Below, one piece after another: positions 9,907-25,003 of a DNA stretch of 64,000 bases. The notes below the pieces were generated by a model. That model searched no databases and was not told the origin of the DNA. It saw nothing but the letters and a program-made list of their open reading frames with translations. The stretch's first letter is position 1, and every line of letters starts with the position of its first letter. Source of the DNA: Planctomycetaceae bacterium (GTDB taxonomy: Bacteria; Planctomycetota; Planctomycetia; Planctomycetales; Planctomycetaceae); contig DASZIA010000650.1 of assembly GCA_035949535.1 (NCBI GenBank), positions 45,548 to 109,547 on the forward strand, read 5' to 3'. A program made the position numbers and the translations under genes.

Positions 9907-10140
9907 GGCGGAGGATTCGCCCGCGGGTACGCAGTCCATGTCGGCAGGCCAACTTTGTTCCGCGATATGCAGGCTAGACATAAGTGAAGAATGGGCAAGA
10001 AAAAGGGCGCCAAAGGTGCGAAGCAAACGTCCAGGCCGGGGAAAAGACCACGACGCGCGGGCGGCAATCGGCGCCGACAAGCAAGAGCCACCCGACCCAT
10101 TGAGCGTCGAACCACATCGTCCATCGAAGGAGTTTCATCC

Positions 10141-13119
10141 ATGAGTCCGCAGGCCCTTACACTCCCGTTCTGGCAGGTGCAATTCGATGAGACCGGTCAA
10201 CTGGTCGATCCTCCGGCCGTGGACACGGTTCTCCAGGCGCTGCGAAGTGAGGCACTGACGCATCTATTCATCTTCTCCCACGGGTGGAATAACTCCCCGG
10301 CCGATGCCAGAAGCCTCTATGACCGGTTCTTCGGCGCCATGTCCGCCCTGCTTCCCGATCGCCAGGCGGGCGTCAACAGTGGAACGCTTGGGATCTATTG
10401 GCCCTCGATGCGCTGGATTGACGAGGAACTACCGAGCGCGGATGAAGGTGGTCCGGCTGCTGTCTCTACTGCGTTGTCACCGAGCGCTTCAAGTGCGAGT
10501 GCCCAGGTTCTTGCGCTCAAGGCGGTCTATTCGACGCCGCAGCAACGCGCTGCGATCGACGCGTTGGCGGACATGCTGCAGTCGCGACCACGCGATCCGC
10601 TGGCACTCCAGCAGTTCCAGCACTATATGCAGCTGTTGACAACGACCCCGGAATCAGGTTTTCACCCGGAAGATAACGGCGAGCGCAACCTCTTAAGCGG
10701 GTCTCCGCAGGAGGTCTTTCAGCGATTCGCCCTGGTGACGCCGCGTTCCGTTGACCAAGGCGGGGTCGCTGGAATTGGGGACCTTGTTGACCGGATTTGG
10801 GACGGAGCGAAGGAAGCGCTCCGGCAGGCTACTTATTGGGAAATGAAGAAGCGTGCAGGCGTGGTCGGCCAGCAAGGTCTGGGGCTTCTAATTGCCCGCA
10901 TTCACCAGGCGCTGCCCTCGATTCGCGTTCATTTGCTTGGTCATAGTTTCGGGGCGCGCCTCGTTTCCTATTCGCTGGCTGGGTTGCCGGCCGCACTGAC
11001 GGGTTCAGCGTCACCCATCAAGTCGGTCACTTTGCTCCAGGGAGCATTCTCGCACTTTGCCTTTGCGAGCAGTCTGCCGTTTGATCCGTCGAATGGCGGC
11101 GGATTAGCCGGGATGCAGGCGCGCGTGGACGGCCCGATCGGCGTCACGCATACCCCGTGGGACACGGCTCTTGGAACCTACTACCCTTTGGCGTCGATGG
11201 CCGCTAACGATGCGACATCTGCGTTTGAGGACCTTCTGTTTCGTTGGAACGCGATGGGGCATGACGGAGCCCAGTCGGTCAATGCCAACGCAATCGGCGT
11301 CGGTCCAGTGGGAACAGATTACGCAGCATCAACCCGCGGCAGCCAGTTCACGAATTTTGATGCTAACGCTGTCATCCGTTTGGGCGGCCCGCCGTCCGGA
11401 GCGCATAGCGACATCGTTCACCCCGAAATCGCCTGGATCGTTCTTTCCGCTTCGCATGTCGCGGATCAGTCAGCCAATGTCAGCGGATCTGCCACTCAGG
11501 CAGCGGCTGGTTCCCCGCAAGGAGGCGCGGCGAGCCTCGCTCCCGTTGTTGAGACCACGGCGGAGCCACAACGGCAGGAAACATCTAGGTCATCATTTGA
11601 ACCAACGGAACCGCCGCTGATCCGCAACACAACAGTGTCCCTCGCTTTTAATATTCCGCAGGAGGATACCAGGCGGGCAAAAGCGGGCCTAAGGGCTGAT
11701 AACACGTCACCCTGCTCCGTGATGATTGAGCTGAACTTGCACCATCGCTTAGGGCTCGAGGGCGCCAAGGATCGCTTCCGCGCGCTATGGAAGACCCTGC
11801 CGCCGGCTGTGTCGCAAAGAGGATGGGTCGAGATTTCAGATACCTACATACGTTGTGATCTCAGCGTGGACGATGTCCGGATGCTTGCACTGCGCGACGA
11901 GCAAGAAGCCAAAGGAGATGAGAGCGCACACAGCATTTATCAAATCTGGCCTGACTTCCCCGTCCATCCACAGATTGATCAATCCGTCTCAACCATTAAG
12001 GGGGACGCGGCCCGGCGCTCGTACGATGCGACGGGAGCCAGCATCACGTGGGCCGTCATCGACACGGGGATCGACGCCTCCCATCCGCACTTTGCGACCT
12101 ATGACACGCTGGGAGGCGATGTTGCCCAGCTTCATTGCGACTTTACGATGCCAGACACGCCGGTCCCACCACGCATCATCTCCGCGCTAAGGGACACCTA
12201 CGGGCATGGTTCACACGTCTCTGGAATCATCGCCGGCGGACTCGTTGGAGGGGTTCCTGGCAAAACGCCGCCGCCCTATTTTGTCGCGGAATCAGTGCAA
12301 ACCCCGGGTGGACTTTCCAGTGTACAAGAGCGGCGAGGAGTCGATCCGTTACGTCTCACAGGGGTTGCCCCCCGGTGCAAGCTGGTCAGTTTGCGAATCC
12401 AGGGGGACGACGGACAGAATCTTTCATCAAACGTGATTCGTGCGCTGCAATACGTGCGAAAGGATCTCAACGGAAATGGCAAGCTCCTCAGGGTCCACGG
12501 CGTGAATCTGAGCCTCGGGTACGAGTTTGATGCACATTGGTTCGCCTGCGGGCAGAGTCCGATTTGCGTCGAAGTGAATCGACTCGTTCGCTCGGGCGTT
12601 GTCGTGGTTGTCGCGGCTGGAAATACCGGATATGGGACGCTCACCGCAGAACAGCGCCCTGGGACGAGGACCGGGATGGCGTTGACGATCAATGATCCCG
12701 GAAACGCCGATTTGGCCATCACGGTGGGATCAACACACCGTGACAGACCGCACACCTATGGCATCTCCTACTTTTCGTCAAAAGGCCCTACCGGCGACGG
12801 GCGGATAAAACCGGATCTCGTTGCGCCCGGAGAACGCATTACTTCGTGTGCCGCCGGCCGCAATCTGGACAAAATCGGGCCACTCATGGCGGGTAAGCCG
12901 CCGAATACGGCGTGCTACGTGGATGACAGCGGCACGAGCATGGCCGCACCTCACGTGTCGGGAGCGATTGCAGCCTTCCTTTCCATTCGCCGGGAATTCA
13001 TCGGCCAGCCCGAGAGAGTTAAAGAAATCTGCCTCGCGAACGCCACGCCTTTGGGACGTGAGCGGTACTTCGAAGGAAGTGGTCTCTTCGATCTGATGCG
13101 CATGATTCAGTCCGTTTAA
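10141..13119 (+). CDS. fusion protein: N-terminal alpha/beta hydrolase (DUF900-like) and C-terminal S8 subtilisin-family peptidase
   Basis: ORF track gives 9991..13119. I prefer ATG 10141, preceded by GAAGGAG at 10126-10132. The N-terminal half has LFIFSHGWNNSPADA..GIYWPS and HLLGHSFGARLV (GxSxG). The C-terminal half has the S8 triad motifs WAVIDTGIDASHPHF, HGSHVSGIIAG and SGTSMAAPHVSGAIAAF. Confidence 0.8.
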   Translation: MSPQALTLPFWQVQFDETGQLVDPPAVDTVLQALRSEALTHLFIFSHGWNNSPADARSLYDRFFGAMSALLPDRQAGVNSGTLGIYWPSMRWIDEELPSADEGGPAAVSTALSPSASSASAQVLALKAVYSTPQQRAAIDALADMLQSRPRDPLALQQFQHYMQLLTTTPESGFHPEDNGERNLLSGSPQEVFQRFALVTPRSVDQGGVAGIGDLVDRIWDGAKEALRQATYWEMKKRAGVVGQQGLGLLIARIHQALPSIRVHLLGHSFGARLVSYSLAGLPAALTGSASPIKSVTLLQGAFSHFAFASSLPFDPSNGGGLAGMQARVDGPIGVTHTPWDTALGTYYPLASMAANDATSAFEDLLFRWNAMGHDGAQSVNANAIGVGPVGTDYAASTRGSQFTNFDANAVIRLGGPPSGAHSDIVHPEIAWIVLSASHVADQSANVSGSATQAAAGSPQGGAASLAPVVETTAEPQRQETSRSSFEPTEPPLIRNTTVSLAFNIPQEDTRRAKAGLRADNTSPCSVMIELNLHHRLGLEGAKDRFRALWKTLPPAVSQRGWVEISDTYIRCDLSVDDVRMLALRDEQEAKGDESAHSIYQIWPDFPVHPQIDQSVSTIKGDAARRSYDATGASITWAVIDTGIDASHPHFATYDTLGGDVAQLHCDFTMPDTPVPPRIISALRDTYGHGSHVSGIIAGGLVGGVPGKTPPPYFVAESVQTPGGLSSVQERRGVDPLRLTGVAPRCKLVSLRIQGDDGQNLSSNVIRALQYVRKDLNGNGKLLRVHGVNLSLGYEFDAHWFACGQSPICVEVNRLVRSGVVVVVAAGNTGYGTLTAEQRPGTRTGMALTINDPGNADLAITVGSTHRDRPHTYGISYFSSKGPTGDGRIKPDLVAPGERITSCAAGRNLDKIGPLMAGKPPNTACYVDDSGTSMAAPHVSGAIAAFLSIRREFIGQPERVKEICLANATPLGRERYFEGSGLFDLMRMIQSV

Positions 13120-13254: not shown

Positions 13255-14373
13255 ATGGCACGCTCCTCTCGACTCCGCGTAATGATTTCGAGCAGGTGCA
13301 ACGACCTTTTCCCTGCGAAAGGCGGCACCACTACTCTCACAGACATCCGCAAGAAGCTTAAGCAGCAAGTCGAGTTGGTCAGTCCGTTTGACAAGCAGCT
13401 ATTTGAGGTGTGGATCAACGAAGAAACCCCGCCAACAGGAGGAAGCTGGAGCAGCTGGGACGTTTGTCTCAACGCTGTTAAGGACTGCGACATTCTGCTT
13501 GCCCTGTCAAACGGCAATGCCGGCTGGGCCAAGAGCGCTGGAGATATCGGCATTTGCCACGCCGAATTAATGACCGGCCTGTCCCAGGCCCCCGGGAAGG
13601 TGTGGCTTATATCGCTGGGCAACGTCCCGATCGATTCTTCCGAGCAAGGCGAGCGCAATAGAAGATTCCAGGAATTCGTTGCCCTTCAGAACCTCTTTCG
13701 CGGTGCCGAGGTTAAGACGATTGCGGAATTAGAGCAGCGCGTCAAAGAGGCGTTGAATGAAGCTCTGTTGACGCTTGTTCAGCGAGGCGTGCGCGAGTCA
13801 ACGAAAGGGCGCTACTACAGCGGCCAGGCTCTGGATTGGACTCGCCTCAACTTCGCCAATCGGCAGTGTGAGATGCTGAAAGTCCTTCGCGAAGCCGTGC
13901 TACAGCATCCCAGCTCTGCTGAGGACAGTGGCAACGTGTTCATAAGCCTTGGCAGCGCTGAGGTACTCTTCGTGCTGCACGCGATACCTGCAGCATTCGG
14001 GGTTCCCGCCGCAAGAGAGCTGGTAGGACAGCCCTTCCTCCAAGACCACACGCTTCACGGCCTGTTCGTCCGCCGGCGCGTGGGCCCAATGCATGTGATC
14101 GCCTGCCATCGGTCAGCTACTGAGGCACAGGCGACAAAGCTCCTCGGGTTTCCTGATGCAACGGTCGTAAACGCTCCGTTCGGGATTTATGTGGCAGACA
14201 ACGTCCAAAAGGTCCAGTTTGCGTTTGTTTGCAATTGCCGCGACGATGCCACAACTCGCCACGGCGTGCAGCGATTCTTCGATTGGCTCGAGCAGACCGG
14301 CGAAGGGGCTCTTCTGGCGTCGCGCGCGGCGTCGCGAGCCAGGATTGTTAAAGCGATAGCCAAGGAGACCTGA
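13255..14373 (+). CDS. DUF4062-like (nucleoside deoxyribosyltransferase/TIR-like fold) N-terminal domain protein
   Basis: GGAAGGAG lies upstream. The N-terminal LRVMISSRCNDLF..IRKKLKQQVE..FEVWINE..CLNAVKDCDILLALSNGNAGW follows the DUF4062 pattern as I remember it (FISS..D.., E, C.D..v.i.g..yG). The remaining 260 aa or so are unassigned. Confidence 0.55.
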   Translation: MARSSRLRVMISSRCNDLFPAKGGTTTLTDIRKKLKQQVELVSPFDKQLFEVWINEETPPTGGSWSSWDVCLNAVKDCDILLALSNGNAGWAKSAGDIGICHAELMTGLSQAPGKVWLISLGNVPIDSSEQGERNRRFQEFVALQNLFRGAEVKTIAELEQRVKEALNEALLTLVQRGVRESTKGRYYSGQALDWTRLNFANRQCEMLKVLREAVLQHPSSAEDSGNVFISLGSAEVLFVLHAIPAAFGVPAARELVGQPFLQDHTLHGLFVRRRVGPMHVIACHRSATEAQATKLLGFPDATVVNAPFGIYVADNVQKVQFAFVCNCRDDATTRHGVQRFFDWLEQTGEGALLASRAASRARIVKAIAKET

Positions 14374-16303: not shown

Positions 16304-17809
16304 CTAGAAGTTATCCTGCGCGTACTTGACTGCGGCGGCCGCGTTGATCAAACCCCAACCAGTGGCTTTGTCGAAGCCCGGCACAGCCGGCTCGTTAAAC
16401 CGTTGGGGAAAGCTATGGCCGACCACCACGTCCGTTGCGGTTTTGGAGAGGGCCTCGATGACCTTTGCCGGCTCCAAGCCAGGCTTGGCGCTCAAGATGA
16501 GTCCCGACGCTCCCGCCACTTGGGGCGCAGCCGCCGACGTTCCTGAGAAGAGCGCCCACCCGTCGGTGGCGGTCGTGCCGTCCCCAGCTTCACCGCTGTC
16601 GAACGCACTTTCCTCTTGGTCCAGCTGGCAGCCTGGTTGCACGGGCAACATCAGGTACTGCGCTCGGGGCTGCATTCCTACGAGTCCGCAGACTGTTGGT
16701 ACGACGACACCGCCAAACCATGGGCTGGCGTATCCGCTAGCGTAGTCCGACGCTTGGAGATGCCCGACAGCGTCTACGAAGGCTCCGCCAGCGGCAAGCA
16801 CACCGGTAATTTGGGGTTCGATCGACAGCTGACCGTTGCCGGCCGAGAAGATCACAAGGATGCCTTTGTCGATGGCATCCTGAACCTCAAGAGCAAACGA
16901 AAGATCGCTTGGGTCGGGCTCGCTGCCGGCCGGAATTGGATAGGGCAGCTCGTAGTCGCCGCCCCAAGAATTCGTCATGATCTGTGGTGCTAAGGCTTTG
17001 CCCTTCAAAAATGCGGCTACCACGCCGACGAACTTCCCCGCATTGTCCGTGCCACGAACCGGCTGCAAGGTGGCACCTGGCGCCATTGCGAAAATGTTCG
17101 CAGATTCACCGGTGCCGTGCCCAATTGGATCCTTGCTCGGATCGGTGCCTGGGATCGCCACAAGTGGCGTGTTGACGTTATAGCCATTGGCCGTGAAATA
17201 GGGATGGCGATACCAACCGGAATCTGGCATCACGATGGTGACACCGTCACCACGGATTCCTTGTTGATGGGCGTGAGTCGCGTTCAGGAGCGTGGCCACG
17301 TCATTTGGAAGTTGGAGGTGGTATTTCGGAGAACTGAGCGGGATCGGGGACGGAAAGATCGCGTGATGCTGGCGTGGGCGCTCCAGTACGACGCCATCAA
17401 TTTTCAGCGACCGAGACTGGACCATCCCAACGCCGAACGCTTCCGGTTGACCGTGGCCAACGATGTCCAAGCAGGTAATGTATTCTCGGACCCCTTCCGT
17501 GGTGCTCATTAACGTTTCCATCGGCTTAACGGTGCCGCCCGTCAGCGATTCATACGCGCCCGATGCTCCTCGTACCGACAAACCCAAGTCACTCTCTGCA
17601 AGAATCTCGAATCCCGACTTTTCCAAATGAGTCCTGACCGAGTCAATATCACTCCGCTTGGCATGATAGGCCTTGGCAGTGCGGTGCAACTTCTTGGTAT
17701 TCTTGGCGCCGAACACCGACTCCTTTCCCTGCACGGAAACGTACCCGACAATCTTATCGGGAACTGGATTATCCGACTTCATGAGCGCGGGCAATCCAAA
17801 GTTTGCCAT
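16304..17809 (-). CDS. S8 subtilisin-family serine peptidase with N-terminal pro-domain
   Basis: Triad motifs seen: VTIVMPDSGWY, HGTGESANIFAMAPGA, NSWGG, SGTSAAAPQVAGASGLIL. The N-terminal 100 aa or so (DIDSVRTHLEKSGFEILAESDLGLSVRGASGAYESLTGG) look like an activation or inhibitor pro-domain. Confidence 0.85.
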   Translation of the reverse strand: MANFGLPALMKSDNPVPDKIVGYVSVQGKESVFGAKNTKKLHRTAKAYHAKRSDIDSVRTHLEKSGFEILAESDLGLSVRGASGAYESLTGGTVKPMETLMSTTEGVREYITCLDIVGHGQPEAFGVGMVQSRSLKIDGVVLERPRQHHAIFPSPIPLSSPKYHLQLPNDVATLLNATHAHQQGIRGDGVTIVMPDSGWYRHPYFTANGYNVNTPLVAIPGTDPSKDPIGHGTGESANIFAMAPGATLQPVRGTDNAGKFVGVVAAFLKGKALAPQIMTNSWGGDYELPYPIPAGSEPDPSDLSFALEVQDAIDKGILVIFSAGNGQLSIEPQITGVLAAGGAFVDAVGHLQASDYASGYASPWFGGVVVPTVCGLVGMQPRAQYLMLPVQPGCQLDQEESAFDSGEAGDGTTATDGWALFSGTSAAAPQVAGASGLILSAKPGLEPAKVIEALSKTATDVVVGHSFPQRFNEPAVPGFDKATGWGLINAAAAVKYAQDNF

Positions 17810-19649: not shown

Positions 19650-19958
19650 ATGCTAAACCTCGAACACGGCATCGACTCGATGACGAATTTCAAACGTCAA
19701 ACCGCCGAATACCTGGAGCGGCTGCACAAGACCGGCGAGCCGGTCGTCCTCACAGTGAACGGCAAGGCTCAGGTGGTCGTGCAGGACGCAGCCGCCTATC
19801 AGATGCTGCTCGATGCCGCGGCGAAGGCGGAACGCGAGGAAACGGTGGCGGCGATTCGCGAGGGCCTGGCCGACGCCAAGGCCGGCCGCACCAAGCCAGC
19901 GAGGGCGGCGCTCAAAGCGCTCGCCAAGAAATACGGCATCGCCACGCCGGACAAGTAG
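19650..19958 (+). CDS. Phd/YefM-family antitoxin
   Basis: MTNFKRQTAEYLERLHKTGEPVVLTVNGKAQVVVQDAAAYQMLLD is the canonical Phd/YefM core. The stop lies 1 nt before the toxin start. Confidence 0.85.
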   Translation: MLNLEHGIDSMTNFKRQTAEYLERLHKTGEPVVLTVNGKAQVVVQDAAAYQMLLDAAAKAEREETVAAIREGLADAKAGRTKPARAALKALAKKYGIATPDK

Positions 19959-19959
19959 C

Positions 19960-20340
19960 GTGAAATATCGTGTGCGACTCACCGCCAAAGCCGAGGCGGA
20001 TGTGGACCGGGTTCTCCGCTGGTTTCACGAGGAGCGCGCGACGGCCGCCGGTGATCGTTGGTTCTCGCGGCTGATGGCCAAGATCGATACGCTCGAGGCG
20101 CACCCGGCACGCTGCGCTGTCGCGGCCGAATCCGAAGACCTAGGAGTCGAAATCCGCGAATTGCTGGTTGGAAAGCGCCACGGTGTCTATCGAATTCTGT
20201 TTCAGATCGAAGGGCGGACGGTTCAAATACTGCGAGTCTGGCACGGTGCGCGGGATCGCGTCTCACCGGAGGACCTCTGGACGTCAACGCACCGGCGTTT
20301 TCGAGGCATTGACCAATTGCCGCCGTTAAGACTGGGCTGA
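19960..20340 (+). CDS. ParE/RelE-family toxin
   Basis: This is the frame of ORF 19813..20340, with the start at GTG 19960. VKYRVRLTAKAEADVDRVLRWF..HPARCAVAAES..IRELLVGKRHGVYRILFQIEGRTVQILRVWHGARD matches the ParE/RelE pattern. Confidence 0.8.
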   Translation: MKYRVRLTAKAEADVDRVLRWFHEERATAAGDRWFSRLMAKIDTLEAHPARCAVAAESEDLGVEIRELLVGKRHGVYRILFQIEGRTVQILRVWHGARDRVSPEDLWTSTHRRFRGIDQLPPLRLG

Positions 20341-20894
20341 TTCGAGATTCAGGCGAAGCAGCGACGTCCGTTAACTGGAATCGACTTCGCAATTGCCCTC
20401 CTGGGGTCAGCCGACCAAATGCCCCGGAAATGGCTCCTGGAAGCGCGGAACACGACGGGGGCTGGAATCCAGGCTGAGAGCGGGTGTCGGTGCTCCGTGG
20501 CCCTCTAAATGCGATTCTGGGCCGGTTCGGGACGAGAGTCTGGAGCTCCGCCGCCTCGACCGCTATTGGTCCTGAACGGTGGCCACTTCTGATAAGCAAT
20601 TAAACTGGTTTCTCAATCTGCCGATCACCCGTGATTGATATTGTACGGAATGGGCCCCAACGCTGATGAGTTTGAAGTCATCGCCGTCGGTCGGTGGTTT
20701 TTTGGGCGGTCACCCGTGGCTGCAGCTCAAAAAATCCCGTACCAGAGGCGGGCCTTAGACAGTCATCGTCGGAGGGAGGTCGGGTGCGGGTGGGTTGCTT
20801 TAGTTTCGCTGCTCAACGATTTAAAAGGCGCGGCGCCCTTCGGCGGGATGGTAAGGAGTTAAGGACCTGTGCCGCGCTGGGCTGCAGGACTATT

Positions 20895-21425
20895 TCATTT
20901 ACGCCGAAAGGAGTTCTTCAAAGAGCCGGGTCCCGCAACGGCACGATTCGCTCGCATAAGCCGCTTGCACGCATCCAGTACGGCCCACGGAATCTCCTGC
21001 AGCGCGTCGGCAAGCTGAACGAAGTCAATGAAGGCATCTGGTTTCAACAACGCCCATATGCGGTCATCAAGTTGCTTCTGTGCTTCAGCGCCGCTCTCAT
21101 CCACGTCGAAACCATCCATCCAAAAGATCGCATCGTTCCAGAGAATAAAGTGACTTTGGCAGCCGGTGTCTCTCCAAACGGAGGGAAAGAGAGTAAAACC
21201 CTTGGGAGACTGATAAATTCTCCACGCCTTGGCAGTTCGGGGATCGAGGTTAAGCGTGATGACTTCTCCGCAGCCGTCTGGGCAGCGCATTACTGCGGAC
21301 CGCAATGTGCCACGCTTAACGATCGCGAGATCGCCAGGTTGTGTAACGAGCCCAATGGCGTCGCTATGAGAAGGAACAATCCCTTTCATTCGAGAACGAC
21401 GGGGACGGTTTTCGTAAGACGTCAT
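20895..21425 (-). CDS. DUF6527-like Cys/His protein (last gene of the Ubl-conjugation operon)
   Basis: MRCPDGCGEVITLNLDP..FTLFPSVWRDTGCQSHFILWNDAIFW fits my memory of the DUF6527 pattern (CP.GCG..i.lnl .. PS.. C.SHF.i..G.i.W). Its start overlaps the upstream stop as ATGA (21422-21425). Confidence 0.7.
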   Translation of the reverse strand: MTSYENRPRRSRMKGIVPSHSDAIGLVTQPGDLAIVKRGTLRSAVMRCPDGCGEVITLNLDPRTAKAWRIYQSPKGFTLFPSVWRDTGCQSHFILWNDAIFWMDGFDVDESGAEAQKQLDDRIWALLKPDAFIDFVQLADALQEIPWAVLDACKRLMRANRAVAGPGSLKNSFRRK

Positions 21426-22972
21426 GCAGCTTCCTCATGCGAAGCAATTGCGACCAACAAGCGGTAGGCGGACCAATAAGCGTAGCTACGGACTACTGCG
21501 TCGGGGGCGTCGATCTGTATCTTTGCTTCATCCTCAGGAAACATGGCCATTCGCAGCATGTACGCGGCCAGAACATAGCCGTACGCCTTTTCGTCGAGCT
21601 CGATATAATATGCCATTAATCGCAGCTGGCGGCAGGCACTCCACATCCAAGTGTGCAGACACGGCTGTTCCTGGAGCGGCGGCACGATAGAGAACTCTCC
21701 GGCCTTGAACGTGAATAAAGCGTCGATATGCCGTCGCCATTCCTTAAATCGACTTGAGTCAAGGTATCGACCGTCATCCTTCTCATTCCAGAGAGTATTT
21801 GCTTCGAGGTCGAAGCAAATCGCAATCTCGAGGGACGCAAGGTCTGCAACCAATGGACCGATGGTTGACTTGTAAAAGTCAATCATCACGGCCTCGCCAT
21901 TTTTGACACGTACGTTTTGGGTGTTGAGATCGCCGTGCACCGGTCCACGACGATACAAGTGCTTGCTCGACTCATCGAGCATACGCGTCAGCTCGGGTCC
22001 TGACAGTTTGGCCCCAAAGGGCTTGGCGGCTCTTATATAGGGCGCCTTGATTTGTGCGGGGTCCAAAATGGTTGGGAGGATGTCCGCAAGAGCGATACGT
22101 TCATCGCGGCGAAACGCCTGCTGGCGCCACCCTCTAAGAGCATCGTCAAACAATGAATGAATGATTGCTCGCGCGCCGTAGGGCTGCAAAAGGTCTGATA
22201 GAGACACGGAATCATCGACAAAGTCCCCCACCAAGATACCATCGGTCGAACCCAGCAGGCAGCGCTTAAGCTCACAGTTCGGTCTTTGGCTGAATGGGAT
22301 ATATCGGGTTACGAATCTCTCGTAAGCGTCGTACTCTTGCAGGATACGTTTGCTTCGATCAAGTTTCGCAAAATATGGAAGCGGATACGGCGCTGCCTCG
22401 CCCTCAGGAAACTCAGCATAGACCACAAGTACGCGCGCGCCTGACAATCCTTTAGTGAGCGGCTTAATCGTGATTGCCTTACAGTCGCTGAATGCCCGCT
22501 TCAGCAAAAAAAGATCGCTTGCATTCGTCGGCACCTCGCCCTTGATTTCCAGATCGGGGTTAAGTGGCGGGCCGGCAGGATGCCGTGCCGCCAGTTCAGC
22601 AAGCTCGTATCCCGGCTTTCTAAAAGAGAATTGTTTGATTGGCCTCGGAAAGTCGACGAATCTTGTGGTGACTTCAGGAAAATCAAGAATATGACTTTGG
22701 AGCAGTTTGTCTTCACCCTTCTCATTCGCATGGAGAACAACAAGCAAGCCATGGTCGGCTGCCTTTGACGCCCAGCTTTTAACGAGACCGATTGACCGAC
22801 CCTTGTGCTTACTATCGAAGCTGAATACGACGCATCGTGAAACCGACAAATCTCGATCGGAGAGTGGAGGGTTGGTTACGGTGAGGGTCAGTCGCCGGCG
22901 TGTGAACTCGGTGAGGATGGTCTTCGACGGCGCGCGGCCCAGCCAAAGGACCTGTGTGCGTTCGATGGTCAT
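21422..22972 (-). CDS. protein-kinase-like / aminoglycoside-phosphotransferase-fold protein with N-terminal alpha/beta domain
   Basis: ORF track gives 21422..23002. I prefer ATG 22972, which makes an ATGA overlap with the upstream stop. Kinase-fold landmarks seen: LTKGLSGARVLVVY (Gly loop), PYFAKLD (Lys), ILQEYDAYERF (helix C Glu), HGDLNTQNVRV (catalytic loop), VMIDFYKS (DFG-equivalent). Confidence 0.8.
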   Translation of the reverse strand: MTIERTQVLWLGRAPSKTILTEFTRRRLTLTVTNPPLSDRDLSVSRCVVFSFDSKHKGRSIGLVKSWASKAADHGLLVVLHANEKGEDKLLQSHILDFPEVTTRFVDFPRPIKQFSFRKPGYELAELAARHPAGPPLNPDLEIKGEVPTNASDLFLLKRAFSDCKAITIKPLTKGLSGARVLVVYAEFPEGEAAPYPLPYFAKLDRSKRILQEYDAYERFVTRYIPFSQRPNCELKRCLLGSTDGILVGDFVDDSVSLSDLLQPYGARAIIHSLFDDALRGWRQQAFRRDERIALADILPTILDPAQIKAPYIRAAKPFGAKLSGPELTRMLDESSKHLYRRGPVHGDLNTQNVRVKNGEAVMIDFYKSTIGPLVADLASLEIAICFDLEANTLWNEKDDGRYLDSSRFKEWRRHIDALFTFKAGEFSIVPPLQEQPCLHTWMWSACRQLRLMAYYIELDEKAYGYVLAAYMLRMAMFPEDEAKIQIDAPDAVVRSYAYWSAYRLLVAIASHEEAA

Positions 22973-24309
22973 TGGCGGCGCTGCCTTCCAGGCAAAGGCC
23001 ATTTGTTTCCGAGGCCTAACGCGCCCGAGCGAGAGCAGACTATGCAGGTGGGGTCAGCCCGGAGGGTTGCGGAACGGACGACGCCGACAATCCCATTGTA
23101 ATACTGCAGGCGCGACTCACCTGGGACGGGCGTAAAGGCGGTCATGAACATTGTGACGGCAAGTGAAGCCATGGTGCTATTCAAAGATATTACTGCAGGT
23201 TGTGGCTCGTTGTAGCCCGTTATATACGGATCAGCCGCTCGTTGGATGGCTGATTGCAATTCTCGGCGGACGGCGTCAGGATCAATGACGCCGCCGCACA
23301 CGAGGCAAGGCAGCCCCGGCGCGACCATTTGAACGCGCCCGGAAATATGCGTTATTACGCCCTGCTGGGCCACAATGCCCACGCCTAAGTCGATGAGAGG
23401 AACATAGTATTGGTATGCGAGCTGATTCAGCATTGCTCGACTGGCGTGAGAATCGGTGCATCCAAAGACGGCATCCATATCTGCCAGGGATTGCGCAACG
23501 TCGATGTCAGTTACGTCACGGCACTTGGCTGTTATTGAGGCCTCTGGGTTTATCGAGTGGATGAGCCGAGTTGCGACCGCGGTCTTACCAGTTCCAACGT
23601 CGCCAGGCATCGACCCAACAAGGCGATTCAAATTGGTTTCGTCTACGACGTCAGGATCAACGAGCGTGAACGCCGCAACTCCCAAATGAGCAAGCTGTTC
23701 AGCGACAACAGAACCTGTACCTCCAAGACCGACGATTGCGACGCGAGCACCCTGGACGGCCGCTTGACCCTTCTCGCCGAAGGCGCGGAGTTGGCGGTCC
23801 CAACGTTCGTCTAGACTAATGTTTGCGGACGGATCAAAAAGGAGATCCACCTTGGGGCCGACTTGGACGACCGTTAAAGACTCGGACGATGCAAGGCGGC
23901 GTGCCGCGCATCCATCTGGACCGATAACCAAAGCCGCATGCGGGACGTCGGGTACACGTCTGGATAGGAATTCGACGAGTCGTGTCTCCCCATCGTCGTC
24001 TACCGGGGAGAACTTAGGAGTGCCCTCAGCAAAGGGATGAGAGTGTACGAATATCACAGACAGATTTTCCTGCCGGGCTCTCTGCACAAGTGGAACAAAA
24101 AAGTCCGGGCGAAGTTGTGCTCTGGTCGTCGTCCGCACGTCATACGCCCTCTCGGGGGCGGGATGAATTTCCCGCACGAGCAAGGTCGGGCGTGTGCTGT
24201 CCGGAAATGGGGGGCCGGCGAGAAGGATCGCGCACGTTTCTTCCTCGGAGAGGAGCAGAGAACGCGCCATATCACTGTAAGTGGCGCCTGCGAACGCGAT
24301 GCGCATCAT
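22969..24309 (-). CDS. JAB/MPN metalloprotease fused to an E1-like (ThiF/MoeB/UBA) adenylyltransferase
   Basis: N-terminal part: EETCAILLAG and IFVHSHPFAEGTPKFSPVDDDGE (the JAMM H.H..S..D pattern). C-terminal part: ARVAIVGLGGTGSVVAEQLAHLGV..TLVDPDVVDETNLNRL, VFGCTDSHASRAMLN, and two CxxC pairs (PCLVCGG, CIVCS). Confidence 0.9.
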   Translation of the reverse strand: MMRIAFAGATYSDMARSLLLSEEETCAILLAGPPFPDSTRPTLLVREIHPAPERAYDVRTTTRAQLRPDFFVPLVQRARQENLSVIFVHSHPFAEGTPKFSPVDDDGETRLVEFLSRRVPDVPHAALVIGPDGCAARRLASSESLTVVQVGPKVDLLFDPSANISLDERWDRQLRAFGEKGQAAVQGARVAIVGLGGTGSVVAEQLAHLGVAAFTLVDPDVVDETNLNRLVGSMPGDVGTGKTAVATRLIHSINPEASITAKCRDVTDIDVAQSLADMDAVFGCTDSHASRAMLNQLAYQYYVPLIDLGVGIVAQQGVITHISGRVQMVAPGLPCLVCGGVIDPDAVRRELQSAIQRAADPYITGYNEPQPAVISLNSTMASLAVTMFMTAFTPVPGESRLQYYNGIVGVVRSATLRADPTCIVCSRSGALGLGNKWPLPGRQRRQ

Positions 24310-24686
24310 CGAAGTTCCTTAAGGCGTTGTTCACACACTTTCGCATAGGTGACGAGATTGTTGCGGCTGGGGTTCCATCCCTGGACGTGCCACGAGAACC
24401 ATAGGCCCGGCGCATTGACCTCGGGAATCGCCTGGAAATTGGTTGCTTGGGGTTGCCGACTAGGAGCAAGGCGCAAATCGTTATCGGCCCAGAAGCAGTC
24501 GGGCGCGGCAAACGGATAACCAACTGGGGCGACAAAGCGTATGGATGTAGTCGCTTTGTTCCAGCCATCTGGGAGCCGCACATTCTTCAGCTCTATCAAA
24601 ACCGCACCGCTTGGCAATGTGCTGGCTTCGGCGCCCTGAGGATAAACCTGGCGCAGTTCTTCCAGTTGCCGATCCAATATGTTCAT
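24306..24686 (-). CDS. prokaryotic E2 (UBC-like) protein
   Basis: 126 aa. FVAPVGYPFAAPDCFWAD holds a single conserved-looking Cys in the position expected for bacterial Prok-E2 families. There is an ATGA overlap with the E1 gene and a TAATG overlap with the Ubl gene. Confidence 0.75.
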   Translation of the reverse strand: MNILDRQLEELRQVYPQGAEASTLPSGAVLIELKNVRLPDGWNKATTSIRFVAPVGYPFAAPDCFWADNDLRLAPSRQPQATNFQAIPEVNAPGLWFSWHVQGWNPSRNNLVTYAKVCEQRLKELR

Positions 24687-25003
24687 TATTGACCGAACGT
24701 TGCAGGAGGCACGGTATAGAAGTGACAGACAGGGTGCACATTCAAGTCTACGGAGTCATTGTCGGTTATAACTTTATCGGGCTGACCGCCACGGCCCTCA
24801 AGTACTAATTGGTAGGCCGGGTTGAAGTCCGGAATGCGGGCCTTGATTTGGGCACCCGTCAGCGCCGAGTCATCTGTGGTGTATTCGTTTCCGTCGACAA
24901 AATAGTGGTACTCCTTTTTGTGGTGGTGGTGTTCGTGCTCATTTTTGTGGTGCTCCGTTTCAGAGTGACCATTGTGGGTATCTTCAGTCATGTTTAGCTC
25001 CAT
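24686..25003 (-). CDS. ubiquitin-like beta-grasp protein (multiubiquitin-type domain, single copy) with His-rich N-terminal extension
   Basis: YHYFVDGNEYTTDDSALTGAQIKARIPDFNPAYQLVLEGRGGQPDKVITDNDSVDLNVHPVCHFYTVPPATFGQ fits the multiubiquitin pattern. The N-terminal HNGHSETEHHKNEHEHHHHKKEYH is His-rich. The alternative start ATG 24991 has GGAG 7 nt upstream. Confidence 0.75.
   Translation of the reverse strand: MELNMTEDTHNGHSETEHHKNEHEHHHHKKEYHYFVDGNEYTTDDSALTGAQIKARIPDFNPAYQLVLEGRGGQPDKVITDNDSVDLNVHPVCHFYTVPPATFGQ

Follow-up and report, generated by a model that had tools for sequence, protein, structure and literature searches.

Operons of class 6e were described as combining a polymeric ubiquitin-like protein (polyUbl), an inactive E2/RWD-like protein, a JAB-E1 fusion, and a metal-binding protein Y (Iyer, Burroughs, Aravind 2006, Genome Biol 7:R60). 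This class, also designated 6E/DUF6527, was later renamed Bub, for bacterial ubiquitination-like (Ye et al., bioRxiv 10.1101/2024.11.21.623953). The Type I Bub operon, as known from Citrobacter sp. RHBSTW-00271, comprises BubAB (a fusion of the ubiquitin-like protein, Ubl, with the E2), BubCD (JAB-E1), and BubE (DUF6527); its E1 uses Y370 of the crossover loop and its E2 uses S333, aided by H335 and D299, with oxyester intermediates (bioRxiv 10.1101/2024.11.21.623953). S333 lies at the structural position of the canonical E2 Cys, the S333A/H335A substitution abolishes conjugation, and the conjugates are removed by BubE, a protease with a Ser/His dyad that also has a zinc site made of Cys (Ye et al.). 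Conjugation of Ubl by Bub via these unusual Tyr and Ser oxyesters was shown between 2024 and 2026. Here, we describe a five-gene operon at positions 20895-25003 of a 64,000-nucleotide stretch from a Planctomycetaceae bacterium (assembly GCA_035949535.1, contig DASZIA010000650.1, positions 45,548 to 109,547 of the forward strand), hereafter the window. The operon is no isolated case but one member of a large sub-family in which Ubl and E2 are unfused and a kinase of the TCAD9/APH fold is encoded as a fifth gene between the E1 and BubE.

The Bub-type conjugation core

The block consists of five open reading frames (ORFs), all on the minus strand, for which profile searches of Pfam gave the following assignments:

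24686-25003, minus: Ubl (BubA-like), 105 aa; Multi_ubiq (PF14452), E 2.6e-6, above the gathering score
24306-24686, minus: E2 (BubB-like), 126 aa; Prok-E2_E, E 1.4e-7
22969-24309, minus: JAB-E1 fusion (BubCD-like), 446 aa; ThiF, E 2.6e-39, and Prok-JAB, E 3.7e-4
21422-22972, minus: kinase-fold protein, 516 aa; TCAD9, E 3.2e-17, and APH, E 4.6e-8
20895-21425, minus: BubE (DUF6527), putative Ser/His deconjugating protease, 176 aa; PF20137, E 5e-16

A first-pass annotation, made from the letters alone, had placed five ORFs here and read them as a single coupled unit joined by stop/start overlaps; both the coordinates and the coding-strand junctions (TAATG at 24684-24688; ATGA at 24306-24309, 22969-22972, and 21422-21425) were confirmed exactly. 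The families that it expected for the five proteins were recovered in Pfam (the Ubl in Multi_ubiq, the E2 in Prok-E2_E, the JAB-E1 fusion in ThiF with Prok-JAB, the kinase in APH, and the last gene in DUF6527), and its placement of the operon in a Bil/Bub-type family holds, with Bub (6E/DUF6527) as the identity. The kinase ORF has an alternative start, an ATG at 23002; the ATG at 22972 is favoured, as the conservation among homologs begins there and an identical database protein is 516 aa long. From the homologies set out below, there is little doubt that these genes form a Bub operon with JAB fused to the E1, carrying a predicted conjugation core.

The JAB-E1 fusion has Citrobacter BubCD as its top sequence match in the Protein Data Bank (PDB; entry 9ea4, E 2e-32, residues 24-439), followed by MoeB/TcdA-type E1-like proteins; no Bil protein is among the matches listed. 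Its JAB domain (residues ~1-160) carries the zinc-site residues E24, H89, H91, and D104, which align with E28, H91, H93, and D104 of BubCD. The E1 domain (residues ~165-446) contains GLGGTGS, R229, the crossover-loop Tyr362 in a DPYITG motif aligned to the Y370 motif of 9ea4, and Cys335, Cys338, Cys422, and Cys425. All of these key residues are invariant in 84 unique homologs save for one Ser at Cys425, with Tyr362 always kept. The only Cys near the crossover loop is that of the CxxC at the loop base, and the predicted catalytic residue of the E1 is Tyr362, not the CxxC cysteines. The two invariant CxxC pairs, CLVC (codons 23296-23307) and CIVC (23035-23046), are absent from Citrobacter BubCD; we presume that they make up a structural zinc site as in E1s of the ThiF/MoeB type. 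Other model libraries added little: NCBIfam gave sub-threshold matches to ThiF/MoeB and Bud32/RIO only, with no equivalog cut-off reached. A PADLOC check, proposed in the first-pass annotation, was of no more use: the E1-E2 models of its 2023 library, which is without Bub, recognised only the generic adenylation domain of the E1 (residues ~150-340), and the other four proteins had no match.

Ubl and E2 are encoded by separate genes overlapping in TAATG, as in all relatives examined. The Ubl consists of a His-rich N-terminal tail and a single beta-grasp domain, ending in ...VPPATFG-Q, and its PDB sequence match is a weak one to 9cd2, a multi-ubiquitin domain protein of E. coli ZDHYS365. Gly104 is invariant in 69 unique homologs, and the C-termini (VPPATFG followed by 0-2 residues) fit a trimming by the JAB domain that exposes Gly104. 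The His-rich region (residues ~10-32, window 24908-24976) reads HNGHSETEHHKNEHEHHHHKKEYH; the relatives have different low-complexity tails, and the Ubl of loci L003 and L011 bears an extra N-terminal region of ~100 aa. Position 102 of the Ubl shows an apparent difference between kinase-bearing (T/S) and kinase-less loci (N), but N also occurs in 11 kinase-bearing Ubls, so this difference looks clade-specific.

For the E2, the sole PDB sequence matches are to Citrobacter BubB (9eae/9eav, E 0.08). Its D63, S98, and H100 align with D299, S333, and H335 of BubB, the distance from D to S being 34 residues, and Asp63, Ser98, and His100 are invariant in 74 unique homologs. Ser98, in an FSWH motif, is the equivalent of the catalytic S333; the predicted catalytic residue of the E2 is therefore Ser98, with His100 and Asp63, and the chemistry expected from this homology is oxyester rather than thioester. 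The first-pass annotation had instead named as candidate catalytic residue the Cys of a PDCFW motif (Cys64; codon 24493-24495), which adjoins Asp63. This Cys is real and conserved (in 73 of the 74 unique E2 homologs, with Ser in the other, and Met in Citrobacter BubB), yet the position homologous to the catalytic one is Ser98.

The key residues of BubE, namely Cys48, Cys52, Ser82, Cys89, and His92, are invariant in 66 unique homologs. In the segment PSVWRDTGCQSH, the S-x6-C-x2-H spacing is equal to that of S92/C99/H102 of Citrobacter BubE. There are three zinc-motif Cys in the protein of the window, not four, with Asp50 where about half of the relatives have Cys. A sequence search of the PDB found no solved-structure relative of BubE. 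The C-terminal region (residues ~103-176, window 20895-21120) is helical, contains EIPWAVLDAC, and is conserved across relatives as ADxLxEIPWAVLxACxRL without a Pfam match; it may correspond to the hydrophobic 'extension' of the Bub paper. The DUF6527 gene had at first been regarded as a 'Cys/His gene' extending the core. It is BubE, a defining core gene of 6E/Bub, and as four of the five genes make up the 6E/DUF6527 core, the gene is not an add-on.

Set against the described systems, the operon shares most with Type I Bub, i.e., the JAB-E1 fusion, the Tyr of YITG, the Asp...Ser-x-His of the E2, a Gly-ending Multi_ubiq Ubl, and the Ser/His dyad of DUF6527; its relatives likewise adjoin CapH/CapP or WYL regulators and sit in defence islands. 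It differs by the gene for the 516-aa kinase between E1 and BubE, by the four E1 Cys of the two CxxC pairs, by the near-invariant E2 Cys beside the active-site Asp, by the three zinc-motif Cys of BubE, and by the distance in sequence from Citrobacter BubCD (E 2e-32). Class 6e comprises the same four families in the same order, allows unfused Ubl and E2, and has a solo-Ubl version on record, whereas no kinase is listed for it, and its E2 and metal-binding protein were then held to be non-catalytic (Genome Biol 7:R60). Type II Bub (6E.2: BubA, BubBD, BubE) has the Ubl, BubE, and serine-based E2 chemistry in common with the block, but its E2-E1 fusion, its missing JAB, and the Lys+His pair beside its E2 serine were not found here. 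Bil (bacterial ISG15-like), for which an anti-phage role has been demonstrated, likewise encodes its Ubl and E2 in two genes and includes an E1 and a JAB peptidase; its JAB, however, is a separate gene, its E2 is Cys-based, and it has neither DUF6527 nor a kinase. Identity with Bil was rejected, the E1 of the block having one adenylation domain fused to JAB in place of tandem inactive/active adenylation domains and a Cys domain. Identity with Cap2/Cap3 of the type II cyclic-oligonucleotide-based anti-phage signalling system (CBASS) was rejected as well, since there is no CD-NTase gene and no E2-E1 fusion, and the PADLOC match is limited to the adenylation domain.

The kinase and its conservation in the operon

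The kinase passes the Pfam cut-offs for TCAD9 (63.3 bits, cut-off 40) and APH (33.5 bits, cut-off 23.2). An N-terminal flavodoxin/CheY-like domain (residues ~1-135, window 22568-22972) precedes a kinase domain of the APH/TCAD9 type (residues ~150-516). None of the catalytic residues (K203, E213, H346-G-D348, N353, D365, and D377) varies among 61 unique homologs, because of which the kinase is predicted to be active. In an AlphaFold2 model built with 32 homologs (predicted local distance difference test, pLDDT, 89.3; predicted template-modelling score, pTM, 0.86), the complete protein-kinase fold that had been read from the sequence was recovered. The best Foldseek matches of the kinase domain in the PDB are APH(3')-Ia, APH(4)-Ia, maltokinase, MTR kinase, and choline kinase (E ~1e-7 to 1e-5), and the sequence-profile matches are to Rio2, a Bud32-like kinase, and MTR kinase only, around the HGDLxxxN...IDF catalytic loop. 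The fold is compatible with a protein or a small-molecule substrate alike. The N-terminal domain is a (beta-alpha)5 fold (pLDDT 83.5) for which Foldseek yields only generic flavodoxin, receiver, and TIR-like matches (template-modelling score ~0.5). We abandoned the idea of a receiver domain, since Asp53, which would be the acceptor, is not conserved and occurs in only 21 of the 61 sequences.

We then surveyed the gene neighbourhoods of homologs from two directions. For every kinase homolog looked up, from 71% down to ~30% identity, the gene order was Ubl, E2, JAB-E1, kinase, and BubE, and this order was found in Planctomycetota, Nitrospira, Armatimonadota, Alphaproteobacteria, and unbinned metagenomes; hidden Markov model (HMM) scans of the loci also recovered copies of E2 and BubE that the gene callers had skipped. 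No homolog of the kinase outside this operon type was seen among those examined. From the side of the E1, four JAB-E1 homologs (~50% identity) picked regardless of the kinase were all accompanied by TCAD9 and BubE, one of them in the isolate Sphingomonas sp. ASV193. A metagenome scan seeded by the JAB-E1 alignment gave 80 loci of more than 355 relatives, or 74 after duplicate removal. The kinase lies directly 3' of the E1 in 57 of the 74 (45 complete five-gene operons, 11 ending at a contig end, and one with a disrupted kinase) and on the opposite strand in two, and it is present in ~87% of the informative loci sampled via the E1; the loci beyond these and the kinase-less ones are uninformative. 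Conservation of the kinase as a neighbour had been set beforehand as the test by which the first-pass reading could fail, and the neighbourhoods bear that reading out. In a neighbor-joining tree of JAB-E1, a quick distance tree, the kinase-less loci form a single clade nested among kinase-bearing ones, and this nested position suggests one single loss.

The family is large. In an exhaustive profile search (E<=1e-30), the kinase matches fell into 537 clusters at 50% identity, and most of the 150 matches listed are full length. A scan of GTDB representative genomes with a narrower kinase alignment gave just three loci, so this collection under-samples the kinase family. Taken with the invariant catalytic residues, the survey makes it highly probable that the kinase is an integral and catalytically competent component of the sub-family rather than a passenger.

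Some loci depart from the common arrangement. In L066 (4542-6310, minus) and L082 (2662-4452, minus), the kinase follows a second Ubl, both being encoded opposite to Ubl-E2-JAB/E1-BubE; this second Ubl terminates directly in Gly (...PPAMFG* and ...PPATQG*), and the two genes form a separate Ubl-kinase module. BubE likewise can pair with its own Ubl paralog, as in L014, L034, and L035 (3274-4140, minus), where a second Ubl and BubE are divergent from Ubl-E2-JAB/E1-kinase. A predicted protein of 917 aa (P0284) has a ThiF domain at 165-417 and then the kinase at 430-911. In L013 (879-4265), L043, L045, L048, L055, L058, L059, L070, and L090, the Ubl is immediately preceded, on its own strand, by a gene of ~1130 aa for a UvrD-helicase plus PD-(D/E)xK nuclease. 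This gene is confined to one branch of the JAB-E1 tree; it is found in all kinase-less loci with enough upstream DNA and in four kinase-bearing loci (L013, L058, L059, and L070).

In the literature compared, the only kinase linked to Bub is CapK (Chambers et al., EMBO J 2026, PMC13373217). Like the kinase described here, CapK is genetically associated with Bub operons, but it is an HTH-STAS-GHKL protein of the anti-sigma-factor type, encoded upstream with its substrate, the STAS-wHTH protein CapS, and acting in transcription control (PMC13373217). CapK was rejected as the identity of our kinase, given the APH/protein-kinase fold, the position within the operon, and the lack of a STAS gene. TCAD9 (PF19974) was defined in the vWA-MoxR-VMAP ternary conflict systems (Kaur et al., eLife 2020); the kinase passes its gathering score with complete catalytic residues, whereas its context is a Ubl-conjugation operon instead of vWA-MoxR-VMAP and it has an N-terminal flavodoxin-like domain of its own. 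A kinase in this operon class is unmentioned in row 6e of Iyer et al. 2006, in Kaur et al. 2020, and in the 2023 Bil preprint, and the word "kinase" occurs zero times in each of two Bub preprints of the Corbett laboratory, the comparison being with the text of the preprint versions. Kinase-bearing operons may be listed without comment in published Bub catalogues. The first-pass annotation had proposed an undescribed variant extended by two genes; this stands for the kinase and for the unfused Ubl and E2, which are the only undescribed aspects of the operon, and falls for the DUF6527 gene, already part of the core of the known Bub operon. We know of no earlier example in prokaryotes of an enzyme with the protein-kinase fold being embedded in ubiquitin-like conjugation.

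Possible roles of the kinase

By homology to the Citrobacter system, the JAB domain would trim the residue after Gly104 of the Ubl, and the E1 domain would adenylate Gly104 and then take the Ubl onto Tyr362 as an oxyester. The Ubl would be handed to Ser98 of the E2, helped by His100 and Asp63, and from there to target lysines, and BubE (Ser82/His92) would remove the conjugates. The kinase may work in complex with JAB-E1 and phosphorylate the Ubl or another component of the pathway, by which phosphorylation would gate or license conjugation; its N-terminal flavodoxin-like domain could be a docking or sensing module. An action of the kinase on the Ubl or the conjugation enzymes, within a complex bound to the E1, is suggested by the start/stop overlaps, the E1-kinase fusion, and the pairing of the kinase, like that of the Ubl-specific protease BubE, with its own Ubl paralog. 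As a whole, this account of a Bub sub-family with an integral kinase that gates conjugation by phosphorylation is the one we favour, with moderate confidence; the specific gating role is put forward tentatively. A narrower version, in which the kinase binds JAB-E1 and phosphorylates the Ubl or the hydroxyl nucleophiles themselves (Tyr362 of the E1, Ser98 of the E2, Ser82 of BubE), is rather doubtful. Its appeal is that the Bub nucleophiles are Tyr and Ser, which can be phosphorylated unlike cysteines, so that such an on/off switch would be possible only in an oxyester-based pathway. In eukaryotes, PINK1 phosphorylates ubiquitin. If true, phosphorylation of the Ubl here would be a bacterial counterpart of PINK1/phospho-ubiquitin, although the analogy is functional only: both kinases are tied to a ubiquitin-fold modifier, and their homology ends with the kinase fold.

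Several observations weigh against this account. The structures nearest to the kinase (APH, maltokinase, MTR kinase, and choline kinase) are of small-molecule kinases, and the segment between IDF and D377, as read from the sequence, is short and lacks the long activation loop of protein kinases, as in APH/RIO-type kinases; a non-protein substrate is therefore quite possible. Eight of the 74 loci (nine with L054), all of a single clade, have no kinase and have BubE directly after the E1. The Ubl-E2 fusion (BubAB) that defines Type I Bub is absent, being replaced by overlapping separate genes. The role of the nearly invariant Cys64 of the E2 is unaccounted for in this sub-family. The fusion of E1 and kinase is a single predicted protein, P0284, which could be genuine or could stem from a read-through or an error of assembly. 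No CapW/BrxR, CapH+CapP, or CapK+CapS regulator was recognised within ~2.5 kb upstream in the window, and according to the Bub authors, phage protection by any Bub operon has never been demonstrated.

The rival with the most to commend it is that the kinase is an effector, i.e., the output of the system, acting on a small molecule or on a host or phage target, with Ubl conjugation activating, localising, or restraining it, in a way similar to the priming of the CD-NTase by Cap2 in type II CBASS. We consider this about as probable as the gating role, with a chance well below even. The small-molecule kinases among its structural neighbours point this way, as does the description of the TCAD9/APH-type kinase as an effector domain of nucleoside triphosphate (NTP)-dependent conflict systems, possibly with low-molecular-weight substrates (Kaur et al., eLife 2020), and the four core Bub genes are without an obvious effector. 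The sole kinase-less clade is nested in the branch that had gained the UvrD-helicase/PD-(D/E)xK gene, which is consistent with an effector swap; L013, L058, L059, and L070, however, carry helicase-nuclease and kinase together, and canonical Type I and II Bub operons function without such a gene. In L066 and L082 the kinase travels together with another Ubl, and in one protein it is fused to the E1; both observations argue instead for action on or with the conjugation machinery. A different departure concerns the E2, which might use Cys64 as its thioester-forming catalytic residue in a cysteine-based cascade unlike published Bub. The near invariance of Cys64, its replacement by Met in Citrobacter BubB, and its position next to Asp63, the D299 equivalent, speak for such chemistry, but the invariant Ser98 and His100 align with residues needed for conjugation in Citrobacter, the partner E1 has Tyr and no crossover-loop Cys besides the CxxC, and Cys64 may be buried because it follows the YPF..P motif in an expected beta-strand. 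A thioester route is accordingly unlikely in our judgement.

Two further explanations were considered. The kinase could be an unrelated passenger, e.g., an aminoglycoside-resistance-type phosphotransferase inserted in a Bub operon, as its Pfam APH match, its top structural match to APH(3'), and the plain RefSeq label 'phosphotransferase' might lead one to think. It holds, however, the same position in ~60 independent loci of several phyla with 25-75% identity between kinase homologs, its presence follows the JAB-E1 tree, it overlaps its neighbours by start/stop codons on both sides and has a family-specific N-terminal domain, and none of the homologs examined occurs outside this operon type; the neighbourhood survey effectively refutes the passenger and leaves it extremely improbable. 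Hardly any chance is left either for a ThiS/MoaD-type sulfur-carrier or cofactor-biosynthesis operon built on ThiF/MoeB and JAB. The NCBIfam ThiF/MoeB matches that suggest one are all far under the cut-off, with no equivalog threshold reached, and the JGI label 'molybdopterin-synthase adenylyltransferase' on homologs is set against the presence of E2 and BubE, the Multi_ubiq Ubl, and BubCD as the top solved relative, by which this identity is effectively refuted; there are also no sulfur-transfer or cofactor genes nearby. Under the favoured account of an integral kinase, its substrate is likely a regulator, a target, or the output of the Bub pathway, and an intact kinase within a large and diverse Bub sub-family offers a new handle on the targets, the trigger, and the role of Bub.

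The mobile cassette and its genomic context

The similarity of the window at the DNA level to four relatives is restricted to 24925-20907, i.e., to the five-gene block, from which we conclude that the five genes move together as a cassette. It is present on RefSeq plasmids of the cultured rhizobia Mesorhizobium sp. 131-2-5 and Bradyrhizobium guangxiense CCBAU 53363, where the genes are labelled multiubiquitin / E2-UBC / ThiF / phosphotransferase / DUF6527 and the neighbours are RES-Xre toxin-antitoxin genes or a CBASS phospholipase. Together with Sphingomonas sp. ASV193, these cultured hosts make the cassette directly testable. A scan of IMG/VR and a search of phage GenBank gave no record with the cassette, so there is no sign of phage carriage in these collections. 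The guanine-cytosine (GC) content of the operon is 54.9% vs. 58.2% for the window, third lowest among 300 windows of 4.1 kb; the AT-richness noted by eye in the first-pass annotation is genuine yet modest. Consensus promoter and terminator scans gave scores no better than shuffled sequence.

Regulators are found at several related loci, with helix-turn-helix (HTH) and Peptidase_M78 genes (CapH/CapP-like) in L003, L008, and L015, and BrxR/WYL in L007, and other neighbours of related loci are further defence or toxin-antitoxin genes. In L015 (264-4044), a second, different Ubl-E2-ThiF operon (ThiF of 481 aa) lies back to back with the five-gene operon, with the HTH and Peptidase_M78 genes between the two. 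In the window, the operon is flanked by a Phd/ParE pair at 19650-20340 on the plus strand, just as the first-pass annotation had it. Two subtilase (Peptidase_S8) genes and a DUF4062 protein are encoded 3-10 kb from the operon (9991-13119, 13255-14373, and 16304-17809), and DUF4062 is frequent in conflict systems. The region around the operon may be a defence-type island, and the biology of the system is likely a stress response or anti-phage defence carried by a mobile cassette.

Upstream of the operon, the segment 25004-27589 holds three ORFs (131, 184, and 333 aa), none of which matches a Pfam family, and no regulator was recognised there. A plus-strand ORF of 257 aa at 20694-21467 runs antisense to the entire BubE gene; it is most likely spurious because the BubE frame is the conserved one. 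A DUF1559/N-methyl protein, which we take to be of a kind typical of Planctomycetota, is also encoded near the operon.

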